5,995 bases of DNA from IMG/VR virus record IMGVR_UViG_2695420739_000005, positions 1 through 5,995 of that record; one strand, given 5' to 3'. Positions 2,513-5,995 of the stretch are shown here, in pieces; positions within the stretch are counted from its first letter, which is position 1; the number at the start of each line of letters is the position of its first letter. Both the position numbers and the translations under genes were made by a program. Origin of the DNA: a virus. Taxonomy: Duplodnaviria > Heunggongvirae > Uroviricota > Caudoviricetes. The notes under the pieces are model-generated. The model ran no database searches. It was not told the origin of the DNA and worked only from the letters and a program-made list of their open reading frames with translations.

Positions 2513-3031
2513 TCACAGGCCGATATTTCGGCGGTGTTGCTCCAGCCGGTCGACGCCGTTCACCTTCTCAATCATGTTGATGGTGTCGATTTCGACCAGC
2601 TCCTTACCGTCCATCGTCAGCCGGAAATAGGTGCAGATCACGGAGATTTTCGACTCGGTGTCTTCTCCCTGTTTACCCTCGCCGGTGTCGATTTCTTTCT
2701 GACGTCCACGCATGACCACCTCGACGGCCACCGTTTCGCCGGTATCGTCGCGCTGGTAAGAGCCTGCAAAACGAATCGGTACGGCATCCACACCGGTTGC
2801 GGCGTAAAGCTCCCAGATAACCGAATCCGGGAAGCCACCGAGCGACCACTCCATTGACAGCGCATCGTCATCAAGGCCGAGGTCTACCGGTGCGCTGCCA
2901 TTCATCCCCGCACCGCGATAGTTTTCGAGCTTACGGGTCAGTTTTGGTAGCGTGACGGACTTCGCGACGCCCTGATAGCTGTAGCCGTTCAGAAAGACGT
3001 TCATTAACTTGAGTTTGCGCGGCATTGCCAT
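2513..3031 (-). CDS. FII: Contractile tail tube protein (P2 gpFII-like)
   Basis: ORF-track protein MAMPRKLKLMNVFLNGYSYQGVAKSVTLPKLTRKLENYRGAG... (172 aa), recognised as P2 FII. Strong SD (TAAGGAG) 8 nt upstream of the ATG, immediately after the FI stop. Confidence 0.92.
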   Translation of the reverse strand: MAMPRKLKLMNVFLNGYSYQGVAKSVTLPKLTRKLENYRGAGMNGSAPVDLGLDDDALSMEWSLGGFPDSVIWELYAATGVDAVPIRFAGSYQRDDTGETVAVEVVMRGRQKEIDTGEGKQGEDTESKISVICTYFRLTMDGKELVEIDTINMIEKVNGVDRLEQHRRNIGL

Positions 3032-3043
3032 CGGTCAGGCTCC

Positions 3044-4234
3044 TTAATTGCTGTTAACCGAGGTGACCAGATTTGCCAGGTATTTATCGGTAATACGCTG
3101 GCGCAGGGTCAGGTTTTCAAGAGGAGGTACCGGTGTATAGTCGTAGTCGATATACAGTTTTCCGGCCTTGAGGGTTTCCGCATCGTTGGATTCTTCGCTG
3201 AACCAGCAGGTCGCATCCACGATATAACCGTTTGTTTTCAGCTCACGGAATTTGGCATTGATGCCGTCAACGATGTCGCGAATCAGCGTTGCGGTGATGG
3301 GCTTGTCCACCGCCCACATGTGCGCCTCAGCCATCGTGTCGGCCAGCACCTGCGCGGTGCGGGTGTAGTTTTCAAAAAGGAACAGCGGGTCATCAGAGCA
3401 GGTACGGTTACCCCAGAATCGGAAACCGTCGCGGCGAATCAGCGTAGTGACGCCTGACTCGTTAAGCAGGTCAGCATCGGTGCCGGACTCCTGCAAATCC
3501 CAGAATACAGATGCGCTGATGCCGGTAACACCGTTTACCCCGACGTTGGACAGCGTTTTATGCCAGCCCTGCTCCTGGTCGATTTTAGCGCGCAGACCCA
3601 GCGCACGGGCGGTGGCATACGCGGTGGCGGTGGTACTGGCAACCGTATCCCATGCGAGGAAATCCGGCCAGATGACCATCAGCTCACGCTGGCTGAAATT
3701 CTGGCGGTAGGCTTTCACCTCGGAAATGGTCTTACAGCCCCACGCGCTGATATATCCGAAAGCGCGCAGCTTCTGACAGACGGATGCCAGTGCAATAGCC
3801 ACCTCTTTGGTATCCAGTCCCGGCACACCGAGAATACGCGGTTTAACACCGGTTACCGACTCCGCCGCCAGCAGGGCTTTCAGTCCGGTGTACTGACCGT
3901 TTTCGTCAGTGGTGCCGATGATATTGGAAACGGTCTGCGCGAGTTTCGTTTCCTCGTCGTCGCCGGTGCCGTCTTCCACACGCACGACAACGGTGACCGG
4001 TTTTGACTGGTCGGCGATAGCCTGCAACGATGCCGCCAGCGTGCCTTTTTTACCGGCCTTTGCAATTGCGCTTTGCACATTGGTAATCAGCACCGGTTTA
4101 TTGAGGGGGAAGGTTTCCGCATCCGCATCGCTGGCCGTGCAGACCATGCCGACAATGGCAGTGGATACAGTGGAAATGACGCGGGTGCCGTCGTTAATCT
4201 CCAGCACCTGCACGCCGTGATGATAGTCACTCAT
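3044..4234 (-). CDS. FI: Contractile tail sheath protein (P2 gpFI-like)
   Basis: ORF-track protein MSDYHHGVQVLEINDGTRVISTVSTAIVGMVCTASDADAETFPLNKPVLITNVQ... (396 aa), recognised as P2 FI. GGAG about 9 nt upstream of the ATG. Plus-strand ORFs 3447..3710, 3560..4006 and 3909..4220 and minus-strand ORF 3880..4080 are out-of-frame or antisense artefacts. Confidence 0.93.
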   Translation of the reverse strand: MSDYHHGVQVLEINDGTRVISTVSTAIVGMVCTASDADAETFPLNKPVLITNVQSAIAKAGKKGTLAASLQAIADQSKPVTVVVRVEDGTGDDEETKLAQTVSNIIGTTDENGQYTGLKALLAAESVTGVKPRILGVPGLDTKEVAIALASVCQKLRAFGYISAWGCKTISEVKAYRQNFSQRELMVIWPDFLAWDTVASTTATAYATARALGLRAKIDQEQGWHKTLSNVGVNGVTGISASVFWDLQESGTDADLLNESGVTTLIRRDGFRFWGNRTCSDDPLFLFENYTRTAQVLADTMAEAHMWAVDKPITATLIRDIVDGINAKFRELKTNGYIVDATCWFSEESNDAETLKAGKLYIDYDYTPVPPLENLTLRQRITDKYLANLVTSVNSN

Positions 4235-4293
4235 CCGTTTAACTCCGTGGTTAATGGGTGTGTGGTATTTTCAGTTGTGCCGGAGATATCAGG

Positions 4294-4887
4294 CTATTTG
4301 TCCCGGTTGGCTAAGGGATGACACAATTTATTCTTTGCCGCTGATGAGGGGAATTTTTTATAGAGCGTGGACAGGCCAATATCAAAAATCAGCGCCACAC
4401 GTTGACGAGATTCCCCCGCAGCCAGCAACCGTCCGACCTGCTCCCACTCACTCGTGGTGAGTTTCGGTCGTCTGCCACCAATACGACCTTTGGCTCTGGC
4501 CGCTTCCAGTCCGGCGCGTGTCCGCTCGACAATGAGTTCTCGCTCCATTTCAGCCAGGGCACCCATCACATGAAAGAAAAAACGCCCCATCGGCGTGCTG
4601 GTATCAATAGCATCCGTCAGGCTGCGAAAATTAACGCCGCGTTCGCGCAGTTCCTCAACCAGAATGACCAGATGCCGCATACTACGCCCCAGCCTGTCCA
4701 GCTTCCAGACTACCAGAGTGTCACCTGCTGATAATGTTCTGAGCAGCTTTTTCAGTCCCGGTCGGTCGGACTTCGTGCCGCTGATTTTATCCTCAAAAAT
4801 CAGCTCACATCCTGCGCACTCCAGCGCGTTACGCTGCAATTCCGTGTTCTGGTCATTTGTTGATACACGAACATAACCTATATGCAT
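4294..4887 (-). CDS. Site-specific serine DNA invertase (Gin/Hin/Cin/Pin, Din family)
   Basis: 197 aa. N-terminus MHIGYVRVSTNDQNTELQRNAL carries the catalytic-serine motif (YVRVSTxDQ) of resolvase/invertase catalytic domains. Also has the VVWKLDRLGRS and FFHVMGALAEMERELIVERT motifs and a C-terminal HTH region (GRRPKLT...LSTLYKKF). Sits beside an invertible tail-fibre cassette. Confidence 0.9.
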   Translation of the reverse strand: MHIGYVRVSTNDQNTELQRNALECAGCELIFEDKISGTKSDRPGLKKLLRTLSAGDTLVVWKLDRLGRSMRHLVILVEELRERGVNFRSLTDAIDTSTPMGRFFFHVMGALAEMERELIVERTRAGLEAARAKGRIGGRRPKLTTSEWEQVGRLLAAGESRQRVALIFDIGLSTLYKKFPSSAAKNKLCHPLANRDK

Positions 4888-5048
4888 AAAAATCCCTATA
4901 AAAACAGAATAATGACACAGAATTATCTATATATGTACAAGCGGACAAGACTATGGAGCACTCAATTACAATAATCTTGCAGGATAAGAATATTTACTGA
5001 TAGTGGATACATAGCCCACTTAGCATTCCCATGTGAATCAATTAAGTA

Positions 5049-5057
5049 TGGTAAGAT
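5049..5057 (+). promoter_or_regulatory. Candidate extended -10 promoter element (TGgTAAGAT) for the cargo ORF
   Basis: TG-n-TAAGAT lies about 30 nt upstream of the ATG at 5086. No convincing -35 was found, so this is weak. Confidence 0.25.
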
Positions 5058-5085
5058 ATGTTGACCTCAATAAAAGGAAAATCTG

Positions 5086-5403
5086 ATGAACATCGATACC
5101 AATAAAAAAACTACCACACTGAAATATTTTGTCGAAGCCTATCCAGAGAGAATCACTGCTCAAGCGTGGGAACGCCTGGTCAATGAAATTGGTGATTTAA
5201 AAGAAGTTTATGGATATATCGCCTTTCTGCATGACGATGGGTATCTTACAGGAAAGGTAATCTTTGATGGTTCTCCTGAAAGTATTGATGGATGGAGTGT
5301 AGATACTGACTCTCTAAGGATTACATCACAAGGTTATCATTATTGGAAAAAATCAAACCCTACAACACAAGGGAGTAGCGGAATCCTCAGAAGGAACAGA
5401 TAA
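5086..5403 (+). CDS. Hypothetical protein, 105 aa, unknown function (cargo gene in phage hotspot)
   Basis: ORF MNIDTNKKTTTLKYFVEAYPERITAQAWERLVNEIGDLKEVYGYIAFLHDDGYLTGKVIFDGS...; SD AAGGA at 5074-5078 with a 7 nt spacer to the ATG. It is the only ORF in the AT-rich island, is hydrophilic with no obvious transmembrane segment, and is followed by a strong hairpin at 5411-5440. I cannot assign it to a named family with confidence. Confidence 0.6.
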   Translation: MNIDTNKKTTTLKYFVEAYPERITAQAWERLVNEIGDLKEVYGYIAFLHDDGYLTGKVIFDGSPESIDGWSVDTDSLRITSQGYHYWKKSNPTTQGSSGILRRNR

Positions 5404-5410
5404 CTAATAA

Positions 5411-5440
5411 AGATGGTAGCACCATTTGGTGTTACCATCT
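5411..5440. terminator. Stem-loop (13 bp stem with one G-U pair, 4 nt loop), possible bidirectional terminator after the cargo ORF
   Basis: agatggtagcacc-attt-ggtgttaccatct starts 8 nt after the cargo stop codon. It is flanked by A-rich sequence on the 5' side (T-rich for a minus-strand transcript) and a weaker T content on the 3' side. Confidence 0.45.
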
Positions 5441-5529
5441 TAAAATATACCGTGACAATCAGCACTTTCCATTTTTATCTAACAATCAATACTAAAACAT
5501 TCCCTTCTTTCAACATCATATTTAACCGA

Positions 5530-5555
5530 TTCCATAAAACGTTGGTTTGGGAGAA
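5530..5555. other. Invertase crossover site (gix/cix/hix-like, 26 bp, imperfect dyad)
   Basis: TTCCATAAAACG-TT-GGTTTGGGAGAA. It has the AAAC..GGTTT core and TTC...GAA ends characteristic of Din-family crossover sites, and matches about 18 of 26 positions against Mu gixL as I recall it. It sits exactly where the tail-fibre variable reading frame begins. Confidence 0.7.
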
Positions 5556-5993
5556 GGCTCTGCATTACCTGTTGGTGTCCCTGTTCCGTGGCCTTCAGCT
5601 ACGCCGCCAACAGGCTGGCTGAAATGCAATGGCGCTGCCTTTGATAAGGTTAAATATCCCCGTCTTGCTACAGCATATCCATCAGGGAAACTACCTGATC
5701 TCCGCGGTGAGTTTATTCGTGGCTGGGATGATGGGCGCGGCATTGATACAGGGCGTGCTTTATTGAGTATTCAGAGTGATGAAGTCAGAAAGCTCGCATT
5801 AAAATACTGGGGACCAGCTTCAAACAGTTCACCATCAAAAACATTTGCACTCAGCGACAGTGCCGGTGGCGGGTTGTACACGGATGGAATAAGTCAGGCA
5901 AGCGGTGGGATTATCAACGCTTTTCAGCTCCCTGGCGGTAACGAAACCCGCCCACGAAATGTTGCATTTAACTATATCGTGAGGGCTGCATAA
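5547..5993 (+). CDS. Alternative tail-fibre C-terminal variable segment (silent cassette, Hv'/Sv'-like); no independent start
   Basis: The frame is open from 5538, just after an in-frame TAA at 5535-5537 inside the crossover site; the track start at 5547 is a TTG. The translation begins with the ...LPVGVPVPWPSATPPTGW... motif found at the constant/variable junction of Mu S and P2 H-type fibres and ends with NVAFNYIVRAA, the conserved C-terminal signature of these fibres. Orientation is opposite to the other tail genes, as expected for the unexpressed arm of an invertible segment. Confidence 0.8.
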   Translation: MGEGSALPVGVPVPWPSATPPTGWLKCNGAAFDKVKYPRLATAYPSGKLPDLRGEFIRGWDDGRGIDTGRALLSIQSDEVRKLALKYWGPASNSSPSKTFALSDSAGGGLYTDGISQASGGIINAFQLPGGNETRPRNVAFNYIVRAA

Positions 5994-5995
5994 TG
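5993..5995 (+). CDS. Start codon of the downstream gene, presumably a tail-fibre assembly chaperone (tfa'/U'-like); the body is outside the window
   Basis: ATG overlaps the cassette stop in the string TAATG, with GAGGG 7 nt upstream. Only the start codon is visible, so the identity is inferred purely from synteny with Mu S'-U' and P2 H-G. Confidence 0.35.

Follow-up and report, generated by a model that had tools for sequence, protein, structure and literature searches.

We analyzed a 5,995-nucleotide stretch of DNA (hereafter, the window), which its six-frame open reading frames (ORFs), family scans and genome matches identified as the tail region of a P2-like (Peduovirus) E. coli prophage. 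E. coli chromosomes matched the whole window with identities of up to ~98%, and at least 80% of it was present in 558 of 5426 complete E. coli genomes. The ORFs and family scans placed the genes for a DNA invertase, FI, FII, E and the tape-measure protein all on the minus strand. The invertase, a Gin/Hin-type serine recombinase of 197 amino acids (4294–4887, identified by Pfam and by alignment to Mu Gin), ends with a TAG stop codon at 4296–4294. Downstream lies FI (3044–4234, ATG at 4234–4232), the tail-sheath gene that opens the F operon, which was recognized from the Pfam families Phage_sheath_1 and Phage_sheath_1C and from the P2 FI gene annotated beneath the match; it is followed by the tube gene FII (3031–2513), gene E (2456–2181) and, further on, the tape-measure gene T. 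Between the invertase stop codon and the FI ATG are 59 bp (4235–4293), which hold the predicted core promoter and 5′ UTR and lack an intrinsic terminator; the original prediction had located both codons correctly and given the length of this gap as 57 bp. The same junction of invertase, promoter and FI was found at 90–99% identity in 603 of the 5426 complete E. coli genomes (~11%, or about one in nine).

The invertase has a Pfam Resolvase domain at residues 3–135 (E = 2.9e-52), an HTH_7 domain at residues 138–181 (E = 4.7e-13) and a match to PHROG 125, 'DNA invertase' (E = 5.8e-100). Mu Gin (3uj3) aligned to residues 1–184 (E = 3.8e-93), leaving the tail beyond residue 184 unaligned. On the other side of the gene, we found one gix/hix-like crossover site, TTCCATAAAACGTTGGTTTGGGAGAA, at ~5528–5553, whose expected partner would lie beyond the end of the window. 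Immediately downstream of this site, a plus-strand ORF of 148 amino acids (5547–5993) that encodes a Phage Tail Collar domain is directed away from the tail operon and looks like the silent alternative tail-fibre C terminus of an invertible segment. Between the crossover site and the invertase gene is an AT-rich insert (4890–5530; 33–39% GC, as opposed to ~55% nearby) containing a plus-strand ORF of 105 amino acids (ORF105, 5086–5403) for which Pfam, PHROGs, PADLOC and NCBIfam all gave no match. The insert looks like a moron, one that has also displaced whatever promoter serves the invertase.

The late promoters of P2 and P4 that respond to Ogr or Delta carry a partial dyad of the TGT-N12-ACA family centred ~55 nt 5′ of the start, and in P2 either Ogr or Delta binds this dyad and activates RNA polymerase at promoters that have no -35 element. 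The promoter of the P2 F operon, PF, has reportedly been characterized by footprinting and mutagenesis, by Julien and Calendar in 1995 and Christie et al. in 2003. The textbook consensus, as restated in PMC3931495, is TGT-N12-ACA, and it was for this exact form that the region 4235–4420 had been searched when the original prediction concluded that no canonical late-promoter dyad was obvious between the invertase and FI. We confirmed that the exact form is absent from that region, which has only one-mismatch matches, at 4308–4325 and 4356–4373. The idealized consensus is also absent from P2 itself, with no exact TGT-N12-ACA in any of the three activator sites annotated in its genome (AF063097 3057–3087, 10239–10266 and 17555–17583). 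The PF site, TGTGCTGTCGATTAGCCA, instead has the form TGT-N12-CCA and is centred at -57.5 (within 17555–17583), and the PO/PP site, TGTGTCAGTGATAAGCCA, has the same form and is centred at -55.5 (within 3057–3087). The PV site (10239–10266) fits the dyad only with another spacing or another arm. The earlier search thus failed because it used an idealized form that none of the annotated P2 sites matches, and such searches miss real P2-type late promoters, including P2's own.

When P2's form was considered, a dyad became apparent: TGTGTCATCCCTTAGCCA, a TGT-N12-CCA on the minus strand at 4325–4308, inside the region that had been searched and with the form of both P2 sites. Its half-sites extend to TTGTG (4326–4322) and CCAAC (4310–4306). 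In substance, then, the claim of a missing late-promoter dyad does not hold. Counts of the motif do not exceed chance, with three exact TGT-N12-CCA matches in the window (3.3 expected) and 26 one-mismatch matches to TGT-N12-ACA (27.7 expected), and our argument therefore rests on homology and position. A second exact match on the minus strand, TGTATCAACAAATGACCA (4850–4867), lies ~20 nt inside the 5′ end of the invertase coding sequence and, with the count at chance level, is probably meaningless. The original prediction had also pointed to a TTGT...ACAA pair with a longer spacer; this pair exists on the plus strand (4298–4301 and 4323–4326, 21-nt spacer), ending at 4326 rather than 4325. We do not regard it as a dyad in its own right. 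Its minus-strand TTGT (4326–4323) is the true distal half-site, and its other arm belongs to the -35 block described below and not to the proximal half-site.

To place the dyad relative to known promoters, we searched phage records with window 4500–4150 (minus strand) as the query. The whole query was matched at 94–97% identity by invertase-carrying Peduoviruses (pro483, the T22 P2-like phage, S164 and a Salmonella phage), and the match to P2 was confined to window 4314–4150, which corresponds to AF063097 17572–17736 (96.4% identity over 165 bp). The GenBank annotation of AF063097, from which we took the P2 activator site and start, lists an 'activator binding site; activation of pF promoter' at 17555–17583, the start of the F operon at 17626–17628 and the FI ATG at 17652. 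Transferred through the alignment, the 29-bp activator site falls at approximately 4331–4303 and the start on the CAC triplet at 4260–4258, which would place the dyad centre 57.5 nt from the start, exactly as in P2, and give a 5′ UTR of ~25 nt with a Shine–Dalgarno GGAG at 4246–4243. Upstream of the predicted start is a -10-like hexamer, GAAAAT (4272–4267), and between this hexamer and the dyad is a conserved block in the -35 region, GACAAATAG (4302–4294), that is kept in most lineages with or without an invertase.

Aligning the two promoters (P2, GGTTGTGCTGTCGATTAGCCAACCGGGACAAATAGCC; window, AAATTGTGTCATCCCTTAGCCAACCGGGACAAATAGCC), as the original prediction had proposed, showed the same TGT-N12-CCA in both, with an identical -10 hexamer, start triplet and Shine–Dalgarno sequence and the same distance to the start. 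From the dyad to the ATG, only three bases differ (4288, 4278 and 4261), and the half-sites and their spacing are identical, which, together with the 96.4% identity, argues against the suggestion that the FI late promoter has diverged. Two of the substitutions, C to T at 4288 (~-29) and T to A at 4261 (-2), are private to the window when it is compared with P2 and other sequences of the invertase class, and the latter adjoins the predicted start. No TTGACA-like hexamer is present in the -35 region, where AGCCTG, 17 bp 5′ of the -10 hexamer, matches TTGACA at none of six positions, and a consensus scan of 3900–5100 found no sigma-70-type promoter. A -10-like GAAAAT without a -35 hexamer points to a promoter that depends on an activator. 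The original prediction had named a recognizable dyad with a mapped Ogr-dependent start in this interval as the observation that would speak against it, and the homology to P2 places such a dyad, and by extension probably such a start, here. From these comparisons of sequence, the interval is very probably the orthologue of the activator-dependent PF of phage P2.

We next compared the sequence upstream of FI in 80 viral contigs carrying FI relatives (86–99% identity). A TGT-N12-[A/C]CA centred 81.5–89.5 nt before the FI ATG, and mostly at 81.5–82.5 nt, was present in 79 of the 81 loci with enough upstream DNA; in the remaining two (L073 and L082), the motif at this position is TGT-N12-CGA. In a conservation alignment of 16 diverged representative sequences, the invariant positions were the TGT, the C and final A of the proximal arm (CCA or CGA), part of AAATAG, A71, A73, A74 and T75 of the -10 hexamer (A-AAT) and the ribosome-binding site. 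The dyad spacer varied while the arms remained constant, and no position upstream of the TTGT was conserved across the 16 sequences.

Conservation began at the distal TTGT regardless of what preceded it. In the commonest class, TTGTTTCATCCACTGACCAGC comes directly after a strong terminator (GCGGGCGAATTGCCCGC and then ATTTTCTTTA, as seen in L003), which apparently belongs to the V (tail-fibre) operon upstream. In the P2 class, a degenerate hairpin and T-run, which our simple terminator scan missed because the loop is too long, precede TTGTG. In the invertase class, which by the criteria of our script comprised 17 loci in addition to the window, the invertase ORF runs into TTGTGTCATCCCTTAGCCAAC with no terminator. 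Because the spacer of the window (TCATCC) is that of the commonest class and not that of P2, the homology reaches as far as the distal arm, and divergence of the spacer alone accounts for the BLAST breakpoint at 4314. That conservation sets in so abruptly at the distal TGT provides a clean comparative footprint and fits with a promoter whose upstream limit is the activator site.

Within the invertase class, promoter and coding sequence overlap. The dyad and the -35 block double as the codons for residues 188–197 of the invertase (LCHPLANRDK), with Leu188-Cys189 (TTG TGT) supplying the distal arm and GCC AAC the proximal arm, and the TAG stop codon is the TAG of the conserved AAATAG block. The suggestion that the FI late promoter might be embedded in the 3′ end of the invertase gene was thus correct. 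Two further diverged invertase lineages keep this layout, ending in ..SLCQTPPNPHG* (L073) and ..SMCQTSPNTDK* (L076 and L081). L082, a relative of L073 without an invertase, is homologous to it from TTGTG onward and not upstream, and this limit, together with the variability upstream of the dyad, places the boundary of the module precisely where the activator site begins. In our view, the overlap is a by-product of insertion into a variable slot upstream of PF, and selection acting on the promoter has maintained the sequence that starts at the dyad.

Alternatively, the overlap might itself be functional. If so, the run-on of the invertase into the promoter in three diverged lineages would represent selected dual use of one sequence, and, with no terminator between them, the invertase gene and F operon would be transcriptionally coupled. 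With Ogr bound over the last invertase codons, transcription of the invertase would then be blocked or superseded late in infection, or else basal read-through would give lysogens low levels of sheath and tube mRNA. We regard this possibility as very improbable and favor the by-product of insertion.

The absence of a terminator may also affect how FI is transcribed. In agreement with the original prediction, which saw no hairpin or U-tract between the two genes, our terminator scan of 4235–4293 was empty, and no intrinsic terminator (a G+C-rich hairpin followed by a U-tract) was found there or at the 3′ end of the invertase gene. The predicted RNA fold of 4345–4225 (minus strand) was no more stable than those of shuffled sequences (z = +0.26), which, with a chance snoRNA match as the only Rfam result (E = 0.79), led us to discard a hidden structured RNA or terminator. 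This missing terminator contrasts with the strong terminator abutting the dyad in invertase-free relatives and makes read-through from the invertase gene into FI plausible. Judging from the sequence, some transcripts of the invertase gene or of the late operon upstream may extend into FI, where they would supplement PF and not replace it.

A stronger version of this scenario has PF inactive or much weakened, with most expression of FI to T coming from transcripts that, unhindered by a terminator, read through from the invertase gene or from the late tail-fibre operon upstream. The empty scan and the lack of the dyad-abutting terminator are in its favor, but all of the promoter elements are intact across diverged invertase-carrying lineages, and half-sites that stay invariant while the spacer varies are the pattern expected of a working activator site. 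Moreover, the demand for sheath protein far exceeds what an invertase promoter would supply. We therefore consider a weakened PF very unlikely.

The converse possibility is that the coding sequence of the invertase contains a cryptic terminator or attenuator that insulates the invertase from FI, which we consider extremely unlikely. A simple scan found three terminator-like sites in sense orientation within the gene, and five such sites in 4200–5995 where 1.3 were expected; the candidates are a hairpin at 4407–4393 followed by CTGATTTTTG and one at 4596–4582 followed by TTTTTCTTTC. Against this excess, the stems are only five pairs long, the 4596–4582 site encodes a conserved PMGRFFF motif shared with Gin, so that the protein dictates the T-run, and stopping there would prevent synthesis of the invertase. 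The mini-hairpins with T-runs lie at 4582–4596, 4393–4407 and 4637–4650 (minus strand), and the clearest of them, that coding for PMGRFFF, is probably a by-product of the protein sequence.

The picture that we favor is thus that of a working PF. By analogy to P2, in which the mechanism is established, the small zinc-finger protein Ogr (or a satellite's Delta) would bind the TGT-N12-CCA ~57 nt 5′ of the start and recruit RNA polymerase, and transcription would start near 4259 on the minus strand and proceed across FI, FII, E and T. The ogr gene lies beyond gene D, outside the window. In pro483, the last gene (ORF44) encodes a protein with the Pfam Ogr_Delta domain (E = 1.6e-21) that is identical to P2 Ogr at 72 of 72 residues, and because pro483 has the same junction, this version of PF coexists with an activator of identical specificity. 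The invertase and its invertible tail-fibre module would occupy the variable slot upstream of PF with a boundary at the distal half-site, which would explain why the invertase frame crosses the dyad and ends at the TAG of AAATAG. With the V-operon terminator missing here, low-level transcription of the invertase gene or late transcription of the tail genes upstream would probably continue into FI, as a supplement to PF and not as a substitute for it.

The promoter is already known, and the prophage arrangement is common and ordinary. That the sheath-operon promoter overlaps the invertase stop codon in invertase-carrying P2-like prophages matters for their correct annotation and for little beyond it, except that deleting or engineering the 3′ end of the invertase gene, for example when retargeting tail fibres, would damage the promoter.

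Among known systems, the closest counterpart is P2 PF, which shares with the window the TGT-N12-CCA dyad and its TTGTG and CCAAC arms, the distances to the start and ATG, the GAAAAT hexamer, the lack of a -35 hexamer and the downstream operon. The two promoters differ at five of the seven central bases of the spacer, where the window resembles the commoner, non-P2 class, and in what lies upstream of the dyad, which in P2 is the degenerate hairpin and T-run and then fun(Z), and in the window is invertase coding sequence without a terminator. P2 PO/PP likewise has TGT-N12-CCA, and its TGTGTCA is identical to the distal arm in the window; unlike PF of the window, it serves two divergent promoters, and there is no homology beyond the motif.

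The same invertase-PF-FI junction, at 94–97% identity, is found in pro483 (NC_028943), the T22 P2-like phage (KC618326) and Salmonella phage MET_P1_103_31. In KC618326, the invertase is annotated as only 164 amino acids (2616–3110), ending 154 nt before FI even though the junction is nearly identical to that of the window, which may reflect a frameshifted or truncated gene or a difference in annotation. Like the window, pro483 has a 197-amino-acid invertase and a 59-nt gap to FI; it differs in that its silent tail-fibre segment lies only 30 nt from the invertase gene, an interval that in the window holds the ~640-bp AT-rich insert with its 105-amino-acid ORF. Elsewhere in pro483 (16499–16530), TTGTGCCATTCCCGACACC comes immediately after the stop codon of the gene that precedes the homologue of baseplate gene V; this may be another instance in which the distal arm of a late promoter adjoins the end of a reading frame.

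The switch itself resembles that of Mu, in which Gin inverts the G segment: the window has an invertase that aligns with Gin and a gix-like site beside an apparently silent tail-collar ORF in inverted orientation. Unlike in Mu, the switch in the window is embedded in a P2-type tail operon, and the C-terminal tail of its invertase, which is unrelated to that of Gin, is encoded by a late promoter.
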